Part shown: in pieces, positions 8,838 to 21,718 of the stretch | How positions within the stretch are numbered: position 1 is the first letter of the stretch | Layout of the letters: each line of letters begins with the position of its first letter | Source: Candidatus Parcubacteria bacterium | GTDB lineage: Bacteria; Patescibacteriota; Minisyncoccia; Phycocordibacterales; UBA5272 | Reading direction: 5' to 3' | NCBI GenBank assembly: GCA_039796775.1 | Contig: JBDKJD010000001.1 | Coordinates: forward strand, 5,874-69,873 | Length of the DNA stretch: 64,000 nt | Translations under genes and position numbers: made by a program | Notes under the pieces: model-generated | Told to the model about the DNA's origin: nothing | Database searches by the model: none | What the model saw: only the letters and a program-made list of their open reading frames with translations

Positions 8838-10490
8838 TTAGTCAATAACGTTAACAACAAAACCTTCTTTTAGTCCTCTTGCGTCCTTTACTATAATTTC
8901 AGTCCCAGACAATCCTTCTAGGATTTCTATTTGATCCCCCGAGACCGCTCCTTCTTTCACAGCTACAGACTGAAGTGTGTTAGATGCATTAACAACGAAG
9001 ACATTTGCTCCGCTTGGTGTTAGTTTAAGCGCAGAGAGAGGGATAGATATTTTAAAAGTATTCCCTGCAGTGACTGGTTGAGGATTAGTATCTTTCAAGG
9101 CACTCGTTACCGATATTCTTACTGACTGACCATTAATCAATGTATTTTGATCTTTGATTATCCCTATACGTACTTCTATCTTTTTTGTGCGAGGATCAAT
9201 AGCTTGAGCTACTTTGGTAACTATCCCTTCAACAGATACTCCGTTAGAGGTAACAATTGTTGCCTTCGACCCTATCGCTATTCGTTTCGTGTCATCTTCA
9301 TTAATAAACGATACCACCTCTAAAGCTTTATTGTTAGAAACTATAGCAACTTGAGAAAATGCGCCAATATAATCTCCTGAATTTAATGAAAGAGAATTAA
9401 TAGTTCCAGTGATAGGACTTCGTATAATTGTTTTTTGATAACGAGCAAGAGCTGCGTTATATGCACCCAAAGCTTGCTTCACCTGGGCTTCTGCTTGAGC
9501 TATTGTTCCTGTAATATCGGCATTATTACCTGAAATTTGTGTAGCGGTTTGACTTGAGGTGAGAGCAGTGCGGGTGCTTATAGTTCCATTTATGGTGCCA
9601 GTCACACTTGATCTCACTCCTTGGACTACTGCTTTTTGCGTATCGATGAAGGTTTGATTGAAGGTGCTATCTGGTATCGCTTTATTGTATGCGAGAGATA
9701 GATTATCTAAATAATTTTTGACAGTATTGAGTTCTGCTATAACTGTTGTTAATTCTGCCTGTAAGTCACTTGATGTTGTGATTGTTTTATTTCTCTCGCT
9801 TCTTGAAACGATAAGATTCTCAAGAGATTTTCTCTGTTGTTCAAGATTAAGTACTAGTGAAGAATCTGGCACAGATAATAAGAATTTAGCTTCACTAAAA
9901 CGAGGATCTCTATATGCTATATCCGTCTTGCCTCGAATCGCATCATCCATTGTGGTATAAGCAGAATATAATGTATTAAGTGCCTGATTTTTGACATCAT
10001 TTAAACTATTGCCAGATTGAGCGCTGTTTAATTTAGCGATTTGAAGTGAAGCTTTAGCTTGTTCATACGCGCCTTCTGCTTGTAACGTCGAAGCCCTTTC
10101 TGCGCTATTCTCAAATTCTGCAATAATTTGACCAGCAACTACCTGATCTCCTATTTTTCTGTAGACACGTGTTAACTTACCTGAACTTTCAGAAAGAATT
10201 GTCGCTTCACTTACAGAGGTAACAGTACCAACAAGAGGTATATCTTTGCTGTCTGAAGATAATTCTAAGAGTGAAGCAACTTGGACAGAACGTACACGCT
10301 CAGACGCTACTGCTTCTTTTGAAGAAGTGCCACCAAAGACAGCTATAAGCACTCCTCCGATAAGCATTATCTCACAAGCGATGAGTGCGTATCCCTTTTT
10401 CTTTGGGAGCTCTTTGTGTAAACGTATTACTTCGTTATAACTTTTTTCTAAATGATAGCGTATCTTCTGTAGATGATCTGTAGTTGTCAT
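8838..10490 (-). CDS. Efflux periplasmic adaptor / membrane fusion protein (HlyD-like).
   Basis: It has an N-terminal transmembrane segment, long coiled-coil segments and a beta-barrel-like C terminus. It sits immediately upstream of the RND gene. Confidence 0.8.
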   Translation of the reverse strand: MTTTDHLQKIRYHLEKSYNEVIRLHKELPKKKGYALIACEIMLIGGVLIAVFGGTSSKEAVASERVRSVQVASLLELSSDSKDIPLVGTVTSVSEATILSESSGKLTRVYRKIGDQVVAGQIIAEFENSAERASTLQAEGAYEQAKASLQIAKLNSAQSGNSLNDVKNQALNTLYSAYTTMDDAIRGKTDIAYRDPRFSEAKFLLSVPDSSLVLNLEQQRKSLENLIVSRSERNKTITTSSDLQAELTTVIAELNTVKNYLDNLSLAYNKAIPDSTFNQTFIDTQKAVVQGVRSSVTGTINGTISTRTALTSSQTATQISGNNADITGTIAQAEAQVKQALGAYNAALARYQKTIIRSPITGTINSLSLNSGDYIGAFSQVAIVSNNKALEVVSFINEDDTKRIAIGSKATIVTSNGVSVEGIVTKVAQAIDPRTKKIEVRIGIIKDQNTLINGQSVRISVTSALKDTNPQPVTAGNTFKISIPLSALKLTPSGANVFVVNASNTLQSVAVKEGAVSGDQIEILEGLSGTEIIVKDARGLKEGFVVNVID

Positions 10491-10499
10491 GGTTTTGTT

Positions 10500-10976
10500 T
10501 TATGAAAGTTTTGTTAATAATGCGAGTAATTGCTTCTGCTCTTTATCTTTAAGAGGGGAGAGTGAGCGTTTGATTTCTTGGAGAATCACTTTCTCTGCTT
10601 GTGTGAATATTTCTTTTCCTAAAGGGGAGATGGTAATGATGTGAGTTTTTTTATTATTGCGAAGCTTCTCTTTTTTTAGTAATTTTTTTTGTTCTAATGT
10701 TTTGATATGTCTACTGACTGTTGCTTCTTTTATGTTAAGATGTTCAGCTAAGTCTTTTTGGGAGAAGGAATCTCTACAGGGGCTAAGGAAGCTGATAAGG
10801 ACAATATATTGCGAGAATGTAAGATTGGCATTCTTCACAACAAGAGTCTCCACTCTCTTTGTTACATCTTCATGAAAACGATGCATTTTATGCATCAATT
10901 CTCCAGATACTGTAGATAAGAGCAAGCAGGAATTAGGTTCTTGTTTTGTCTTTTTTGACACTACTTTTGTTGTCAT
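10500..10976 (-). CDS. MarR-family transcriptional regulator.
   Basis: A winged HTH is present (DLAEHLNIKEATVSRHIKTLEQKKLL). It is the first gene of the MFP-RND operon. Confidence 0.8.
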   Translation of the reverse strand: MTTKVVSKKTKQEPNSCLLLSTVSGELMHKMHRFHEDVTKRVETLVVKNANLTFSQYIVLISFLSPCRDSFSQKDLAEHLNIKEATVSRHIKTLEQKKLLKKEKLRNNKKTHIITISPLGKEIFTQAEKVILQEIKRSLSPLKDKEQKQLLALLTKLS

Positions 10977-10983
10977 GCATCTT

Positions 10984-11005
10984 TTATCTTAGCATGCTAA
11001 GATAA
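10984..11005. promoter_or_regulatory. Perfect 22-bp palindrome (ttatcttagca|tgctaagataa), a candidate MarR operator.
   Basis: It lies 8 nt upstream of the marR-like start codon. Confidence 0.45.
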
Positions 11006-11136
11006 AAAAGTGAATAAGTACACACAATAACTTCAGTGCAAAGGACAGTCTGTGTCGCTCTATAGAATCTAAACAAAAGAACCCGCTTGGTGGGTTCTTT
11101 TGTTTTTATCTTACTCTAAAGATGATGATTCGATAC

Positions 11137-12804
11137 TTATGCCAATCTAAAGCCGAGATACTTTTTCTTTTTTAAGACAATTATCACACATATCATACTT
11201 ATTAACACAAGACCTGAACTCACAAGATAGAGAATTGTCGAATTCTGATACAACAATTCATAATAAAAACTAAATGCAGCCATGCTAGCAACTAGAAGTG
11301 TGGTTAACGTGAAGAATAGTCCTTGCCCTGTAGTGCTTATGAGCTCAGGTTCATCACTTTCTAAGCTAGGGAATAACGCACCGAGCGACAATGCGAAACT
11401 CACAATAAAAAACACAGTACTTAAGAAGAGTAGATAAAAATCAAAAGAGAGTTTTAATCCAAACTGAAGTACAATACTATTAACGAGACTCATCACGAAC
11501 CCTAGACACAAGAAAACAACAGAGAAGAATACTAGTTTGCCAATAAAGATTTTGTTGTAGGCTATAGGGGCTGTTCCTAATATCCAAAGTGTTTTCTTCT
11601 CTACACTAAAACTAGGAAACACGAATCTGAGTGCGAACGCTGCCACAAAGTACATCGCTATCACGAATTGAAATGCTTGGAGAAATGCAGTCTTAGAAGA
11701 TATGTCTGTACCGTCTGTCACCACAGAATCACTCACTGAAACAATAACAGCTATTTGTATAATCCATAATCCAAATAAAAACAAAAACCAGAGAACTCCC
11801 TTAGTATTTCTCATAAAAGATGTTATTTCTTTTACAAAGAGAAGCGATGTAGTACCTCGCACATGATTAAATAGAGTAGATGTTGTATCTGCGCCTTTCT
11901 TTAATTTTTCTTGAAATGACAATAAGAGATCATGGTGGAATCTAGTTGCCAGAATATAGATAAAGATGGAAACCACTGCGATACCCACAATAGCTACAAT
12001 ATTGTTCCAACTCATTGATAAGGCATATTGCCACTCTAGGAACATTGTTGAGATAAGAGAGCTTGGTGAGAGATAAAAGTATGATGTTATGTCAAGAAGT
12101 GTGACAGGAGTATCTCCCTCGGCTGATTTAAAAATAGTAAGAATTTTCAAATTTTTGATACTTGCATACACGGTCATCATAAGCCCAAGAACCAAAGCTC
12201 CAATAATCACAACAAAATGAGCGAAATTAGCTTTTCTTTTAAAGAGCGTAGTTATACTCATATAACATTTCCCAATTAAAAATATGCTCGCATGTGACAG
12301 AGCGACACTTATTATGAGCAATACTACGAGTATGAACATAGCCAATAAAACTTGGAGGAGTGACAGAGAGTGTACTTTGTCAAACGCTACAATAGCTGGA
12401 ACAAAAAGGATGAGGAACGGTAACATGCTCGCTCCCACCCCTTTGGTAAAATGATGATAGGGAAAATCTCTAAAAGAAGGCGAGGCGAGTAACCATTCAT
12501 TTCGTCGTGTTGAAAAAAGTGAGAACATGCCACTTATAAGAGCACTCGTGCACATCAACAAAAACAATACGAGGAAGAACATGTTATAGAGGAACAAAAG
12601 AAGTGGCTGACGTATCAATTCTTCTTCTATTTGAATGTCAACATATCTAAGTCCAGAAACAATAAAAGCGTAGATCAAACTACCGATACTTAAGAATAGT
12701 GCTACGAAGAGTCCTGTAGTGACTGTCTTAGCAAGCGTATTTGTTTTAAAATAAGCTCCTGTCTTTTTGTATTGAAAAACAAGAAAGGGAATAAGGGTAT
12801 TCAT
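11137..12804 (-). CDS. ABC transporter permease, a large polytopic ABC-2-like protein.
   Basis: It is 555 aa with more than 10 hydrophobic segments and is co-oriented with the ATPase gene upstream. Confidence 0.75.
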   Translation of the reverse strand: MNTLIPFLVFQYKKTGAYFKTNTLAKTVTTGLFVALFLSIGSLIYAFIVSGLRYVDIQIEEELIRQPLLLFLYNMFFLVLFLLMCTSALISGMFSLFSTRRNEWLLASPSFRDFPYHHFTKGVGASMLPFLILFVPAIVAFDKVHSLSLLQVLLAMFILVVLLIISVALSHASIFLIGKCYMSITTLFKRKANFAHFVVIIGALVLGLMMTVYASIKNLKILTIFKSAEGDTPVTLLDITSYFYLSPSSLISTMFLEWQYALSMSWNNIVAIVGIAVVSIFIYILATRFHHDLLLSFQEKLKKGADTTSTLFNHVRGTTSLLFVKEITSFMRNTKGVLWFLFLFGLWIIQIAVIVSVSDSVVTDGTDISSKTAFLQAFQFVIAMYFVAAFALRFVFPSFSVEKKTLWILGTAPIAYNKIFIGKLVFFSVVFLCLGFVMSLVNSIVLQFGLKLSFDFYLLFLSTVFFIVSFALSLGALFPSLESDEPELISTTGQGLFFTLTTLLVASMAAFSFYYELLYQNSTILYLVSSGLVLISMICVIIVLKKKKYLGFRLA

Positions 12805-13655: not shown

Positions 13656-14609
13656 TTATTCTTCTTGAATCTTAAGTACAACATTCCCTACTTTTTTCTT
13701 ACTATCGACAAGTTGATACGCTTTAGCGACTTCGTCTATAGTGAACGTTTTATTAATAACAGGATGGATCACACCTTTGGTATAGAGTGAAGATATGATT
13801 AAAAATTGCTCAGAGGTTACCCTCGCTGTCCCAATAATAACTTTATATTTTTTGATAAAAAGACTTTGCAGCATTTCTTTAATCAACCCCGAGAGGAGAA
13901 TAATAACACCTCCTTCTTTGGTCAGCAGATGAATACTCTTCACAGGTATAACGTTTACGCAGTCTATTACTACATCATACTTTATACCAAGAGATAGGAT
14001 ATCAGTCTTTGTATAATCAAATACCATATCTGCTCCCAATTGAGTCATCAGTTCTACATTATCAGTACTTGTAACCGCGGTTACAAGAGCACCCCTGTCT
14101 TTTGAAAGTTGCAAAAAGGACACACCAACAGCCCCTGAAGCACCATTAATAAAAACCGTTTTATTGGCAAGATCTACACCCTCAAGAAAGTGTAAAGCGG
14201 TAGTAAAACCAAAAGGAAGTGCCGCTGCGTCAACATAACTCATTTTCTCCGGGATTTTACCCATTGGGGTAGTGTTATTAATAACCAAGTATTCAGCATG
14301 GCAGCCCACAAAATTTTCAGTCATTCCGTAGACACGATCACCAACAGTATATGTGGACACATTAGCTCCAATCTCTTCTACGATTCCAGAAAAGTTAGCA
14401 CCCAAAATACGCTTACGTGGACCCATAAAACCAAACACCAGTCGCACAAACCAAGGATCAGCTCTTCTTAACCTTGCGTCTCCACTGTTAACGCCAGCTG
14501 CTATTATCTTAATACGTAACTGATTTGGTTTTGTGATTATTGGCTCTTCTATATTTTTTACTTGAGCAACTTCTGGTCCACCATATTTTTCTACAATAAC
14601 TGCCTTCAT
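13656..14609 (-). CDS. Zinc-type alcohol dehydrogenase / quinone oxidoreductase-like protein of the MDR superfamily.
   Basis: It starts MKAVIVEKYGGPEVAQVKN and carries GASGAVG. The start was moved to the internal ATG at 14609, because the track ORF extends through a non-homologous N-terminal leader. Confidence 0.8.
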   Translation of the reverse strand: MKAVIVEKYGGPEVAQVKNIEEPIITKPNQLRIKIIAAGVNSGDARLRRADPWFVRLVFGFMGPRKRILGANFSGIVEEIGANVSTYTVGDRVYGMTENFVGCHAEYLVINNTTPMGKIPEKMSYVDAAALPFGFTTALHFLEGVDLANKTVFINGASGAVGVSFLQLSKDRGALVTAVTSTDNVELMTQLGADMVFDYTKTDILSLGIKYDVVIDCVNVIPVKSIHLLTKEGGVIILLSGLIKEMLQSLFIKKYKVIIGTARVTSEQFLIISSLYTKGVIHPVINKTFTIDEVAKAYQLVDSKKKVGNVVLKIQEE

Positions 14610-14668: not shown

Positions 14669-14700
14669 AAAAAAAGAAATGCCAGCTCCGCGGAGCTGGC
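14669..14700 (-). terminator. Rho-independent terminator on the minus strand.
   Basis: gccagctcc-gcg-gagctggc is followed on the minus strand by atttcttttttta. Confidence 0.5.
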
Positions 14701-14965
14701 ATTTGGACGAGTATTCGGCTAACCTTTACAGAGGTTCTCGTTCGCGCGATTTGTGTCAAAATAGGGTTTTATTGCCTAAAGACATCTTAATGTTATCAAA
14801 CATGAGAAGAGGAAGTCAATAAGTCGACTTACTCCTTAGTTGCAACATCTCGTGTAAAGAAGTAAGTTAGCCAGAGGGAAGTATGAGAATGCGGTGAGTG
14901 CATAAAAAGAAATCCACTGAATCACGCTGACCTTTCTTAATAAAATAAATTATCAACTTATACTA

Positions 14966-14974
14966 TGGTATAAT
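14966..14974 (+). promoter_or_regulatory. Extended -10 promoter element (TGgTATAAT).
   Basis: A perfect TGnTATAAT lies ~16 nt upstream of the ATG at 14990. Confidence 0.4.
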
Positions 14975-14989
14975 TACGTAAACAAAACT

Positions 14990-15180
14990 ATGGGGAAAGT
15001 TATACCATTTAGTCCAGAAGGAAGAAAAAAATACTTGATACTGAATCTGAAGTAAACGATACAGCTTCAAAAGATTCTAATGAACCTAAAGTTACGGGCC
15101 ACAAAAAGGCAATTGAAGAACTTTGTCAGATAATGAAACCGGGACAAGACTTTGCAAATGCGGTTCTGCGCTATTTGTGA
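14990..15180 (+). pseudogene. Small ORF interrupted at an A7 run; with one extra A it would encode a 63-aa protein.
   Basis: MGKVIPFSPEGRKK stops after 21 aa. The adjacent frame continues ..LDTESEVNDTASKDSNEPKVTGHKKAIEELCQIMKPGQDFANAVLRYL to a TGA at 15178-15180. Confidence 0.3.
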
Positions 15181-15220
15181 CCTTTGCGTAAAACGCTGTT
15201 GCCAGGTCACGTGCAATGAA

Positions 15221-15252
15221 AGCCACGGGGTCAGTTAGGGTGACAATTTAGG
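15221..15252 (+). repeat. Imperfect inverted copy of the tRNA-Asn 3' end and flank (gccacggggtCAGTTAGGGtgaca versus the minus-strand tRNA end cccacggagcCAGTTAGGGgtac).
   Basis: About 18 of 24 positions match, including an exact 9-mer. It is a candidate boundary or recombination site for the integrated element. Confidence 0.35.
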
Positions 15253-15309
15253 TCCAAATGGTACACAGGTTCAGAACTTTTAATTGGGCTAATGTAAAAA
15301 ATAGTTTTC

Positions 15310-15942
15310 TTACACAGAGTCCTCAATAACTTCTTTTGGTGACCCTAACGCCTTTGATGAACGCCAACGAAACGATCTTTCGAAAAAACCAGTCACTTCT
15401 TCAAAAATTGAATTAACATCGGATTCCGTTATCTCTTCCAAAATTTCTTCTGGATGAAGAACCTCATTTCGTGTGATTCTTGTTATTGTTCCATTAGAAA
15501 ACTGATCTTTATCTATTATATTCTTTTCATAGAGAAGTTCTAATCTTTTAAAAAGACTTAACTTTTTTTCTCCAGGGTTTTTAATCAAAGAATTAACATG
15601 GGCTTCTAGAAGTACACCACATAAAGCAACAACACTTCTATTTAAACTTGCTGACTTAGCTTTAAGTAGCTCCATATAAGTATCTTTATAGTTGTCAGGT
15701 AACCATGAAGGGATAGTGCCTACATACTCTTTTGGGAAAACTGATTTTAGATTTCTTGTTCCATTTATTCCATTAGTGTACTCAGCAACAATCACATGCC
15801 CACCCGGGCAGTAAAGAGTTTCAATACTTATGCCATTTCTTGGAGTAAAGCTAGACCTTACCTCAAAATAGCTATCCTTTCCACACCTACTACACGTCCC
15901 AGACCAAGTTGCTTGCTGGGTATTAAATTGTATTTCTTGCAT
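15310..15942 (-). CDS. Protein with an N-terminal zinc ribbon and a C-terminal DUF4145-like helical domain.
   Basis: The N terminus has CSRCG...CPGGH. The C terminus (..LFKRLELLYEKNIIDKDQFSNGTITRITRNEVLHPEE..) matches the DUF4145 pattern as I recall it. Confidence 0.5.
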   Translation of the reverse strand: MQEIQFNTQQATWSGTCSRCGKDSYFEVRSSFTPRNGISIETLYCPGGHVIVAEYTNGINGTRNLKSVFPKEYVGTIPSWLPDNYKDTYMELLKAKSASLNRSVVALCGVLLEAHVNSLIKNPGEKKLSLFKRLELLYEKNIIDKDQFSNGTITRITRNEVLHPEEILEEITESDVNSIFEEVTGFFERSFRWRSSKALGSPKEVIEDSV

Positions 15943-16681: not shown

Positions 16682-16880
16682 GTGAGTGAGAGCTTACGCC
16701 CTCCATACCCGTTTCCAGGTACGGCCGTTCAAGACAAATCCCACATGATGGGTTTTTTATTTTGAACGGGCTTTTCACCATGCCAATATTGCTATTGGTT
16801 TAGGCTACTTGTATTCAGTTGTATCTATATAATAACGTAGAAAATGACAAAATAAAAGAAATTAAGTAGTATACAGGGCA

Positions 16881-17799: not shown

Positions 17800-18195
17800 G
17801 ACATGTTCCGGGAAAGATGTCGGTAACAGTGTGTCATAAAGTTGAATCATCCTAATCAAGGATGATTTTCTTTTACTAAGGGTGATTTATTGAGGGGTTT
17901 GCATTTGGCACGATACTCTCGATTACTCACTTATATAAGCAGACCTTTCGGCGGAGCGGAAAGGTCTCTAGCGTACAGCATTAAGCACACAGGCTTTTGC
18001 CTTGTCAAACTCGAACGGAGTTTACGGAGTGAGTTTGATAAGGATAAAAGCTGTGTGCTACGAGAGCATTCCCGAGCGACCGATTAAAGCGAAGGGAATG
18101 ATCTTGTGCGCGAAGCGCGTGCACAAGTGACATCCGGAGGACGGCGCGCAGTGCGTATTTGCATCTGTTGACTCGACTAAACATACACTTACGGA
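17800..18195 (+). promoter_or_regulatory. GC-rich cluster of stem-loops upstream of the Rep gene, a candidate rolling-circle origin (dso).
   Basis: Hairpins include ccgacatgttccgggaaagatgtcgg, aatcatcct-aatcaa-ggatgatt, agacctttcggcggagcggaaaggtct and cttgtgcgcgaagcgcgtgcacaag. The local GC content is well above the surrounding DNA. Confidence 0.4.
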
Positions 18196-18198
18196 GAA

Positions 18199-19068
18199 AT
18201 GAGAAATCCAATAATCTACAAAAAGAAAATAATAATCTCTGGCTCAACAGTTGAGATTCTTTCATACGAGATACCGATAACACATGGTTTTGAAATATCT
18301 CCTAAGTGGAGAGAAAAGAGGAGACTGGCGAAGTTATCGGCTAAAGCAAACCTATCAGAGCAACAATTGCAAGAACGAAGAAAAAGAAACAGAAAACTAG
18401 CCATGATACGAGCAAGTAAAACACTCATACGACTGATTGATTGTAATGTATATCAATACAAAAATACCGTAGGAAGAATCTATCTTCCTGTCTTTCTTAC
18501 GCTTACATTTAAAGAAGACGTACGAGAACAAAAAGAAGCCAATAGACTGTTTACTCTTTTCATAAAAAGACTGAACTACCATGTAAACAAAAAGATCAGA
18601 AACCCACTCAGGTATTCTGTTGTTATCGAGTTCCAAGATCTTAATCGTAAAGGGGTAATTCATTACCATACTCTTTTCTATGATCTGCCATTTATACGAA
18701 GTACAACACTAGAGAATCTCTGGGGAGAAGGTTCTATTAATATCAACAAAGTACATAAGGTTAAGAAGATTGGACTATATGTTTCTAAGTATATGTCTAA
18801 GAATTTTGAAGACCCTCGACTCGATGGACATAAACGATACTTTTCAAGTAGAGGACTTATCAAGCCTAAGACGTATGCAGGAGAGGAAGCGTACAGAATC
18901 GTTAAGTCTGTCATACCTACAGAGGTAACTGTTAAGGTGAGTAACTTTACTACTGAGAAACTTGGCAGTGTAACAAAGGAACTATTTTCTTTTCCTGAGA
19001 AGGAGCATATAGGCGAGCATATCTCCTCTGAGTTTAGGGAGTTGCTTGAGAAGTATGACATTTCCTAA
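18199..19068 (+). CDS. HUH-superfamily rolling-circle replication initiator (Rep), phiX174 gpA / RCR-plasmid type.
   Basis: Motif I is FLTLTF, motif II is HYHTLFY (HUH), and motif III is YVSKYMSK (YxxKY double tyrosine). The order and spacing are correct. Confidence 0.75.
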   Translation: MRNPIIYKKKIIISGSTVEILSYEIPITHGFEISPKWREKRRLAKLSAKANLSEQQLQERRKRNRKLAMIRASKTLIRLIDCNVYQYKNTVGRIYLPVFLTLTFKEDVREQKEANRLFTLFIKRLNYHVNKKIRNPLRYSVVIEFQDLNRKGVIHYHTLFYDLPFIRSTTLENLWGEGSININKVHKVKKIGLYVSKYMSKNFEDPRLDGHKRYFSSRGLIKPKTYAGEEAYRIVKSVIPTEVTVKVSNFTTEKLGSVTKELFSFPEKEHIGEHISSEFRELLEKYDIS

Positions 19069-19983: not shown

Positions 19984-21513
19984 ATGAAAGCAATTATCGT
20001 AGCAAGAGTCTCCACAGACGAACAGAAAGAAAATTCTCCTGATGCTCAGATATACAGAATGGAGAGATACTGCGAGAATAAAAATCTAACTATTATTGAA
20101 AGGTTCAGCTTTGTTGAGAGCGCTTACAAAACTAAACGTGATGAATTCGATAAAATCTTATCATCGGTAAAGAGCACAAAAGAAAGAGTTGCTATTTGCT
20201 TTGACAAAGTTGACCGACTCTCTAGAAACATATTCGACAAGCGAGTAGCTTTGCTGTACGAGAAAGCTATTAATAATGATATTGAACTTCACTTTGTTTC
20301 TGATGGTCAGGTGATAGACAGTAACATCTCTGCGGGTGATAAATTTGCCTTTGGAATGAAGCTTGGTCTTTCTAAATACTATTCAGATGCGATCAGCGAT
20401 AACGTGAAGCGTGCATTTGAACAAAAGCGAAGAAATGGTGAATGGACTGGTAGTGTACGACTCGGGTATCTTAACGTTACCTTAGACGAAAGCAAGAGAC
20501 TTCGAAAGGATATTATTGTTGACCCTGAAAGAGGGCACCTCATAGTTAGAATGTTTGAACTCTACGCTACAGGACTATATTCACTAGAAACTATTCGTCT
20601 ACAAATGATCGATCTCGGACTAAGGACACTCAAAGGTAACAAGCCTTCAAAGAGCGGTATTGAGAATCTTCTTAAGGATAGCTTTTATTGTGGTGTTGCT
20701 ATGTCTCCTAAATATGGAAACTTTCACCACAAGTACCCAAGACTTATCTCAAGAGAACTTTTTGATCAATGTCAAGATATACGAAATGGACGCAACCTTC
20801 GTAAACATAAGTCTGTATCTAAGGAAGTTCTCTTTAAAGGACTTATTACTTGTGATCGTTGTGGTTGTACCATGACACCAGAAATAAAAAGGAAACCTAG
20901 TGGTAAGGAATATGTATTCTATTCTTGTACCAATGCCAAGAAGATATGCGAAAGGATATATGTTAATGAGAAGGAGCTTCTTAAGCCAATTTATGACATT
21001 CTAGACAGATTCCAATCTATATCCCAAGAGACACAGGACAGACTAATTAAGGAACTCAAATCAACCAATCAAGTAGAATCTGATTTTCATAAAGCGCAGA
21101 TTTCCAGAATTAACAGTGAACTTGATATGATCAAAATAAAGCAAGATAAGCTTCTAGACGCATACCTAGATGAGCGTGTTACAGAGGAACAATTTAGCCA
21201 AAAGCAAAAAGAGTATTCTCGTCAGACAGGATTACTTGAGATTGAAGCTAGTGAGTACAGAAAGGGGGATTTTAGCTATCAAGATACCGTAGCTCAAATA
21301 ATTACAATATCTCGAGAAGCAAAGGATATTTTTGAGAAGAGTTCTGATGTTGCCGGAAAACGTGCTTTTATCAATTCACTAATTCAGAACCCGACCGTAA
21401 ATAAGAAAAAGCTATGTTTTACCATAGCTTCTCCTTATAATTTAGTACTAGAACTTGCTAGTACCCCTAACTGGCTCCGTGGGCAGGGATCGAACCTGCG
21501 ACCAACTCGTTAA
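19984..21513 (+). CDS. Large serine recombinase with a resolvase/invertase catalytic domain, a recombinase domain, a zinc ribbon and a coiled coil.
   Basis: The N terminus is MKAIIVARVSTDEQ (catalytic Ser). A Cys cluster (CDRCGCTMTPE...YSCTN) is present. Its 3' end overlaps the tRNA-Asn gene by 42 nt on the opposite strand. Confidence 0.85.
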   Translation: MKAIIVARVSTDEQKENSPDAQIYRMERYCENKNLTIIERFSFVESAYKTKRDEFDKILSSVKSTKERVAICFDKVDRLSRNIFDKRVALLYEKAINNDIELHFVSDGQVIDSNISAGDKFAFGMKLGLSKYYSDAISDNVKRAFEQKRRNGEWTGSVRLGYLNVTLDESKRLRKDIIVDPERGHLIVRMFELYATGLYSLETIRLQMIDLGLRTLKGNKPSKSGIENLLKDSFYCGVAMSPKYGNFHHKYPRLISRELFDQCQDIRNGRNLRKHKSVSKEVLFKGLITCDRCGCTMTPEIKRKPSGKEYVFYSCTNAKKICERIYVNEKELLKPIYDILDRFQSISQETQDRLIKELKSTNQVESDFHKAQISRINSELDMIKIKQDKLLDAYLDERVTEEQFSQKQKEYSRQTGLLEIEASEYRKGDFSYQDTVAQIITISREAKDIFEKSSDVAGKRAFINSLIQNPTVNKKKLCFTIASPYNLVLELASTPNWLRGQGSNLRPTR

Positions 21514-21546
21514 CAGCGAGCTGCTCTACCGCTGAGCTACCACGGA
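21472..21546 (-). tRNA. tRNA-Asn (anticodon GTT).
   Basis: A manual cloverleaf gives: acceptor TCCGTGG/CCACGGA, D arm GCTC-AGCGGTA-GAGC, anticodon stem with loop CTGTTAA, T arm GCAGG-TTCGATC-CCTGC, discriminator G, encoded CCA. Confidence 0.9.
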
Positions 21547-21718
21547 ATATATAAGTAAACGTAAAAAGAATTGTACTAAAAAAAGATTGTTTCTGCAAGC
21601 TATAAGATAATCATTATAGTACAACTCTTAGCATATCACTGTATCCTTTATTGTCTTAAAATATACAATCATGGTAACTTTTTATTATCTATTAAAACTC
21701 AATCGGTAATCAACAAAT

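Follow-up and report, generated by a model that had tools for sequence, protein, structure and literature searches.

The window examined here is a 64,000-nt stretch of contig JBDKJD010000001.1 (assembly GCA_039796775.1) from a Candidatus Parcubacteria bacterium. It holds a 6.2-kb integrative element whose right end lies in the 3' end of a tRNA-Asn gene, the single tRNA that ARAGORN reported in the window. A short inverted copy of the junction between this tRNA and the element lies in the flank next to the left junction. The features that the argument needs are given below in window coordinates.

14877..14917, plus strand: debris of an older element with the promoter-like motif GAGAATGCGGTGAGTGCATAAAAAG, which directly follows the P' arm in the L083, L086, L087 and L089 relics
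15223..15244, plus strand: the inverted copy, CCACGG GGTC AGTTAGGG TGAC, the reverse complement of an attR-type junction, lying outside the element
15251..15255, plus strand: attL core GGTCC, from junction comparison
15252..15329, plus strand: P' arm, which encodes the detached C-terminal tail of the recombinase, QMVHRFRTFNWANVKNSFLTQSPQ-stop (nhmmer E=8e-9; tblastn match at 15252-15326)
15310..15942, minus strand: gene for a DUF4145 protein, from domain search
18199..19068, plus strand: gene for a rolling-circle HUH replication initiator (PF23343, REP_ORF2-G2P), from domain search
19984..21513, plus strand: gene for a large serine recombinase of 509 aa in its integrated-state form (PF00239, E=2.6e-21; PF07508, E=4.5e-12; PF13408, E=6.4e-9)
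21465..21482, plus strand: attR junction and right arm of the inverted pair, CCCTAACTGGCTCCGTGG, made up of the P arm (21465-21472), the core GGCTCC (21473-21478) and then tRNA acceptor bases
21472..21546, minus strand: tRNA-Asn(GTT), from ARAGORN and the Rfam tRNA model (69.7 bits)

The recombinase carries Resolvase, Recombinase and Zn_ribbon_recom domains and the conserved serine motif RVST, which confirms the serine recombinase named in an earlier sequence-only reading. Upstream of it, five genes encode a 256-aa membrane protein, the HUH replication initiator, a 303-aa protein for which no family match was found, a DUF559-like ORF and the DUF4145 protein. The interior of the element also holds a strong match to the LOOT RNA family (RF03000) on the minus strand at 16688-16806, between the DUF559-like ORF and the 303-aa ORF (85.7 bits where the gathering score is 46.4, E=1e-15); nine related elements were scanned, and none had one. 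About 140 nt upstream of the HUH initiator gene, a 29-nt inverted repeat (17984-18059, 83% complementary, 18-nt loop) forms a hairpin that is a candidate for the replication origin of the element. The recombinase family comprises 1592 proteins of Patescibacteria with E <= 1e-20, and the best 120 of them are 60-88% identical. In IMG/VR no close viral relatives were found, the best match being 29% identical, and a full-text literature search returned no description of this family of recombinase elements.

The ends of the element were mapped by comparison with about 40 related integrated elements; 80 genomic loci of recombinase homologues were fetched (labels such as L001 denote loci, labels such as P0021 proteins). 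On the right, homology to L083, whose recombinase is 88% identical, stops at 21479. On the left, homology starts at 15253 with L083, L084, L086, L087, L089 and many others, and an nhmmer profile of left junctions matched the window at 15253-15303 (E=8e-9). The left junction of the window, at 15245-15277, reads AATTTAG-GGTCC-AAATG-GTACACAGGTTCAGAAC, with the conserved P' motif GTACACAGGTTCAGAAC at 15261-15277. Overall, 46 left junctions share one layout: a host trailer, usually with a terminator hairpin, followed by (T)GGCTCC, 5 nt, GTGGACAAGTTCAGAAC and then TGCAAATTGG onward. The stretch that the left and right ends of a single element have in common varies in extent; it is built on GCTC(C) and amounts to GCTC only in L020, L025 and L056. 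GCTC(C) is the only direct repeat common to the ends of the element family, and such a small overlap is what a serine recombinase should leave. The domains and the site forms seen in the family place the element among large serine recombinase integrative elements: attL and attR were seen in about 40 loci, and a contiguous P-core-P' was seen in L173, P0021, P0087, P0105 and P0112.

From these junctions, the crossover appears to lie within GGCTCC, at the last acceptor pair and the discriminator of the tRNA. The consensus attP, GTCCTAACTGG-CT-CCCCTTAGTGGAC, has a weak dyad symmetry around the core, from which we take the CT of GGCTCC to be the likely crossover dinucleotide. The attL core of the window is GGTCC, which departs in the crossover region from the GCTC(C)-based core of the other junction pairs, either through a substitution or through the loss of 1 nt; the same GGTCC core is present in L001, an independently assembled Logan contig. 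Should CT be the crossover dinucleotide, the element in the window is probably unable to excise. A search of the window for a direct copy of the tRNA 3' segment gave only a chance-level best match, inside the ADH gene. The sequence-only reading had argued that the site is not a classical tRNA-duplicating att repeat, and this stands, the only direct repeat at the element ends being G(C)TCC. Exact-protein look-ups returned the same contigs only and two metagenome DNA scans were empty, so that no element-free genome of the same species was found.

At the right junction, the attR core GGCTCC is located in the final bases of tRNA-Asn, and TGGCTC overlaps the CCA, the discriminator and the last acceptor base. 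The P arm next to it, CCCTAACTG, is encoded by the element and consists of Pro-Asn-Trp codons of the recombinase ORF; the P-N-W codons CCCTAACTGG are kept in more than 100 recombinase homologues, whatever follows them. Relatives with an identical tRNA-Asn have unrelated trailers (GGAGCAC-TTGAAAAG in L087, GGAGCC-CAATAGG in L174). Therefore the sequence GTTAGGG beside a tRNA-like end marks an element junction. From this comparison, the last bases of the tRNA-Asn gene, from the discriminator onward through the CCA and the trailer, come from the element.

The recombinase reading frame and attP

The recombinase homologues are conserved through ...SPFNLVLELAxxPNWL and diverge after it. For the recombinase in the window, the conserved part ends with ...PNWL at 21477, and the last 12 codons are the antisense of tRNA-Asn. 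About 45 of the 80 loci end their ORF in the same way, with CCTAAC-TGG-CTC followed by antisense tRNA-Asn or sometimes tRNA-Gln. The left junctions, read in the recombinase frame, encode L-P-L-V-D-K-F-R-T-A-N-W-x-x-I-K-S-E-L-Q-F-S-G-I-L-G-L-F-P...L-Q-N-stop, in which F-R-T and N-W are nearly invariant. Among 46 copies of this tail, the diversity at codon positions 1, 2 and 3 was 0.455, 0.397 and 0.565, a coding-type pattern of substitution. Most members have a detached tail of about 35 aa; that of the window has 24 aa (QMVHRFRTFNWANVKNSFLTQSPQ).

The two pieces are found joined in other members. The tail LPLVDKFRTANW..FSGIL..LQN is fused to the recombinase in P0021, P0087, P0105 and P0112, and L173 (2200-2420) has an uninterrupted P-core-P' with element genes on both sides. 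Since these four proteins and the L173 contig carry an uninterrupted P-core-P', they are free (attP) or tandem forms. These comparisons show that the recombinase ORF runs across attP, so that integration swaps the conserved tail for a few codons antisense to the tRNA.

The tRNA-Asn locus in host relatives

Relatives of the host were located by means of their versions of the adjacent 208-aa protein (52-56% identity). The gene order PPIase-HPF-208aa-tRNA-Asn...ABC transporter is retained in these relatives, and their tRNA-Asn is identical. The contents of the interval vary. In L174 the site is nearly empty, the tRNA and the ABC transporter gene being 345 bp apart. L087 and L089 hold short relics with the canonical attL-like sequence GTGCTCC-AAACG-GTACACAGGTTCAGAAC, the one in L087 being about 400 nt long. 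L086 has a different and longer serine recombinase (569 aa, 9854-11563) at the same tRNA-Asn, and its island continues downstream to about 18400 with the defence-type genes PycTM and Abi_C. L004, L042 and L047 have extra large serine recombinase (LSR) genes upstream in the same orientation, and the extra gene in L042 ends about 65 nt before attL.

Inverted pieces resembling the tRNA 3' end recur beside attL in L083, L086, L087, L089, L003, L008 and L009, and convergent pseudo-tRNA ends exist beside tRNA-Asn in the host relatives. The displaced stub GGAGC(CA) is often the outer arm of a long terminator palindrome, an arrangement that puts an inverted partner some tens of bases from the tRNA 3' end. 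Beside tRNA-Asn in the host relatives, a module of about 130 nt was observed at L087 10300-10432, L089 2947-3092, L086 18469-18646 and L092 1182-1281. It folds strongly on both strands (minimum free energy -67 to -70 kcal/mol, z=-6 to -7), had no Rfam family match and is absent from the near-empty L174 site. A structured RNA, origin-like DNA and a miniature insertion are all candidates for what it is; a tmRNA or another known RNA in the relatives' flanks was considered and dropped, there being no Rfam match.

Apart from these, in 11 loci (L005, L006, L011, L030, L031, L043, L044, L045, L054, L057 and L070) the element abuts, right behind the recombinase gene, only the 3' half of a tRNA-Asn. 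The half-tRNAs break in the anticodon loop and are followed by the conserved TTAC|ACTTATCC..., which suggests that a second element family integrates in the anticodon loop and displaces 3' halves that LSR elements then target. We also considered a crossover in the T-loop or the anticodon loop, in view of these 11 half-tRNA loci and of the longer direct repeats in L008, L009, L013 and L003. This candidate was rejected, as the canonical GCTCC-P' junction is found there too, and we attribute the T-loop and anticodon-loop signals to other elements or modules located at that tRNA.

The left flank in the window also contains a strong intrinsic terminator, AAATGCCAGCTCCGCGGAGCTGGCATTT with a T run, on the minus strand at 14677-14704, just upstream of the ADH gene. 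Its stem-loop holds the palindrome GCTCCGCGGAGC, similar to the tRNA-like ends that the module has in the relatives. Given a terminator at this place, the 367-aa TTG-start ADH ORF is too long, and the real start is at 14609.

The inverted copy outside the left junction

The sequence-only reading had pointed to an inverted match to the tRNA-Asn 3' end at 15221-15252, and the match was recovered. A repeat search listed it as inverted pair I16, with 18-nt arms that are 89% complementary and 6224 nt apart. The plus strand at 15223-15240, CCACGGGGTCAGTTAGGG, agrees with CCACGGAGCCAGTTAGGG, the reverse complement of 21465-21482, at 16/18 positions, and an ungapped extension to 15244 gives 18/22. The exact 9-mer CAGTTAGGG, also noticed in that reading, does cross the 3' boundary of the tRNA, comprising the CA of CCA and 7 trailer bases. 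What changes is the place. The copy had been put at the far end of the element, and the family comparison sets the left junction at 15251-15255, leaving the copy 11-28 nt outside attL on the host side.

Read on the reverse complement, the copy runs from a P arm through a core into the initial 6 nt of the tRNA acceptor strand. In this orientation GTCA-CCCTAACTG-ACCC-CGTGG aligns with GTAC-CCCTAACTG-GCTC-CGTGG of attR. Both mismatches of the 18-nt match (G to A, T to C) are within the 4-nt core; by simple arithmetic, two random mismatches among 18 positions would both fall in the core with a chance of about 0.04. The same copy sequence is present in the Logan contig L001. Upstream of the copy, similarity to the tRNA body did not exceed chance (p=0.74). 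A decayed plus-strand tRNA gene was therefore set aside, with neither tRNA-body similarity nor any tRNA reported there by ARAGORN or Rfam. Likewise, tblastn of the left flank gave no match to a recombinase remnant, so that an inverted recombinase pseudogene was rejected as well.

The match is short at 18 nt, and the earlier reader had searched specifically for such a copy; the CCACGG part also has a higher prior, given that tRNA-like fragments are enriched around the hotspot. These points favour chance resemblance, which we nevertheless consider very unlikely. The local alignment score of the copy against the tRNA end was 26, a score reached by 1 of 2000 dinucleotide shuffles when 15150-15300 was aligned with 21440-21560 and by 0 of 300 shuffles of 10.4 kb on both strands. 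The 18-mer with at most 3 mismatches is expected 0.03 times in the 64-kb window and, leaving aside the tRNA copy, was found once. The region has 36% G+C but the match is rich in G+C, and it lies less than 30 nt from a boundary that was mapped independently. The inverted match is non-random, in keeping with the shuffled controls that had been proposed for it.

The sequence-only reading had offered a recombination half-site, for integration or inversion, as one meaning of the copy. A functional site of this kind, either an integration/excision half-site or one end of an invertible 6.2-kb segment, is suggested by the recombinase gene that abuts the right arm and by the position of the left arm less than 30 nt from attL. 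Sites of serine recombinases are internally dyad-symmetric. The copy spans -9 to -30 from the centre of attL, but its P-arm motif CAGTTAGGG points away from it, while in the true P arm CCCTAACTGG is immediately next to the core. The crossover point falls within the right arm, and hence the pair is neither B/B' nor P/P'. Symmetry of the two arms of attB, with both outside the element, was rejected on the ground that CCCTAACTGG is the conserved P-N-W coding end in all homologues; symmetry of the two arms of attP, with both inside, was rejected because homology begins at 15253 and the core lies to the right of the copy in all left junctions. The central bases differ too: the copy has ACCC against the core GCTC, and none of the dinucleotides GC, CT and TC is identical in the two. 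Mismatched central dinucleotides block product formation by serine recombinases such as those of phiC31 and Bxb1, and large serine recombinases are not known to recombine attR-like sites with one another without a directionality factor. Half-sites should be conserved at the boundaries of relatives, but no inverted P-arm copy was found in any of 39 other elements with mapped junctions when 100 nt of left flank was scanned; across 92 loci, the 18-mer (at most 3 mismatches) occurred elsewhere only at the attR junctions of L008 and L028. Finally, attL, the element, attR and the tRNA follow one another in L001 in the orientation seen in the window, which does not speak for inversion. With its wrong polarity, with both mismatches in the core and with nothing like it in the relatives, we give the half-site scarcely any credence.

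A role in RNA rather than DNA is about as hard to credit. A plus-strand transcript of 15223-15240 could regulate the recombinase by pairing with its mRNA at the 3' end, a stretch antisense to the tRNA. As plus-strand RNA the arms pair at 18/18 positions, both DNA mismatches becoming G-U, and rightward promoter-like hexamers lie at 14937-14964, with TGGTATAAT around 14966-14974. Two wobble-compatible changes, however, are expected by chance in about 10-25% of cases, the local RNA structure around the copy is not unusual (z=-0.25), and the related elements offer neither conservation nor covariation; we regard such pairing as highly improbable. The same low standing goes to the broader idea that selection keeps the copy as a decoy or partner site, or as an RNA partner of the recombinase mRNA 3' end and the tRNA trailer, with the core mutations and the mutated attL core locking the element or allowing rare inversion.

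A host-native origin is also unlikely, though less so than the readings above. Here CCACGGGG, a remnant of a palindromic structure at the tRNA end, would have formed the distal side of a hairpin with the acceptor 3' strand of tRNA-Asn, and GTTAGGG would have arisen by templated quasi-palindrome correction against the element-derived trailer. The relatives provide models for this. Of about 35 loci, about 10 have the displaced tRNA stub of attL embedded in a long palindrome that includes the terminator (L003, L025, L067, L083, L086, L087, L089), and the closing stem of the 130-nt module in L086, L087, L089 and L092 consists of inverted and direct copies of the tRNA-Asn end. The copy in the window has the same relative position and orientation. 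Yet homology of the window flank to the relatives' palindromic module or trailers was tried and was not significant (p=0.4-0.66 for the module), and the near-empty relative L174 has no such inverted copy. Moreover, once the present element had integrated, the templating stub should still adjoin the attL core; it does not, and an extra deletion is thus needed.

The reading that we favour, with moderate confidence, is that the copy is a non-functional fossil: an inverted and slightly mutated attR-type junction just outside attL of the 6.2-kb element. The other debris at this tRNA-Asn hotspot, both in the window and in relatives, and the inverted tRNA-like pieces that recur beside attL fit such a fossil. 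In the sequence-only reading, the copy could have been a relic of the original target. The relic is retained here as the best reading and the original target is not, the copy holding the element P arm CCCTAACTG fused to the core and to tRNA acceptor bases. A displaced original tRNA end would be a direct repeat with the native trailer, and the copy is neither. The copy must have been templated on a post-integration junction that already existed, because element and tRNA bases are contiguous across the crossover point. Strand exchange on the spot is not the source, because a junction made by the recombinase would change partner at the core. The copy would have no role in the integration or excision of the present element.

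Two routes to the inversion fit about equally, and each requires at least two steps. By the first, a convergent pseudo-tRNA end would have received a sibling element in the opposite orientation, and this sibling would later have been deleted down to about 22 nt. By the other, the tRNA end and its element-derived trailer would have been drawn into a palindrome, as often happens at the tRNA-Asn locus, and one arm of the palindrome would have been lost when the present element arrived or after. Several points count against the fossil junction, among them the number of steps in either route and the lack of significant similarity between the flank and the relatives' palindromic module. The P arm of a simple tandem predecessor should abut the attL core in direct orientation, and it does not. 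The G-U compatibility of both mismatches in plus-strand RNA is not predicted, and its chance is about 0.1-0.25.

Comparison with known systems

The att sites of phiC31, Bxb1, A118/LI and TP901-1 resemble those described here in that a Resolvase/Recombinase/zinc-ribbon enzyme acts on few shared junction bases, with weak dyad symmetry of attP around the core and no long direct repeat at the ends. Unlike those systems, the target here is the extreme 3' end of a tRNA gene, whose discriminator, CCA and trailer are restored by the element, and attP lies inside the recombinase ORF. The inverted copy corresponds to none of the four canonical half-sites. In the myxophage Mx8, attP is located within intP and integration into a tRNA gene alters the integrase C-terminus; that integrase is a tyrosine enzyme, and the segment of identity is longer. 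Mx8 may be the closest known analogue of an ORF across attP. Both have attP in the integrase ORF, whereas the present family uses a serine recombinase, and what integration swaps is a conserved peptide tail of about 35 aa, LPLVDKFRTANW...LQN.

Short inverted repeats that flank a segment, with an adjacent serine recombinase gene, recall Hin/hix and Gin/gix. Hin and Gin, however, are small invertases that carry a C-terminal HTH and, aided by an enhancer, act on 26-bp sites whose central dinucleotides are identical, whereas here the recombinase is of the integrase type with 500 aa, the central bases of the arms differ, a hybrid att junction forms one of the arms and no part of the arrangement is conserved. 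The likeness to accretion and decay at tRNA hotspots lies in the layered debris, the tandem recombinase genes and the fossil fragment beside a live-looking element. Remnants at such hotspots are normally direct repeats of the tRNA 3' end, but the remnant here is inverted and includes an element-side arm.

Taken by itself the copy is ordinary, and the repeat carries little weight: it marks past recombination at the tRNA-Asn hotspot and is not a working part. The family of large serine recombinases with attP in the ORF is moderately interesting. The ends and the crossover region are now mapped for widespread small integrative elements of Patescibacteria, which is useful for annotation, and the ORF that runs across attP explains why gene callers report recombinases reading into tRNA-Asn. 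The integrated and free forms encode recombinases with different C-termini, a candidate means of controlling directionality or expression.
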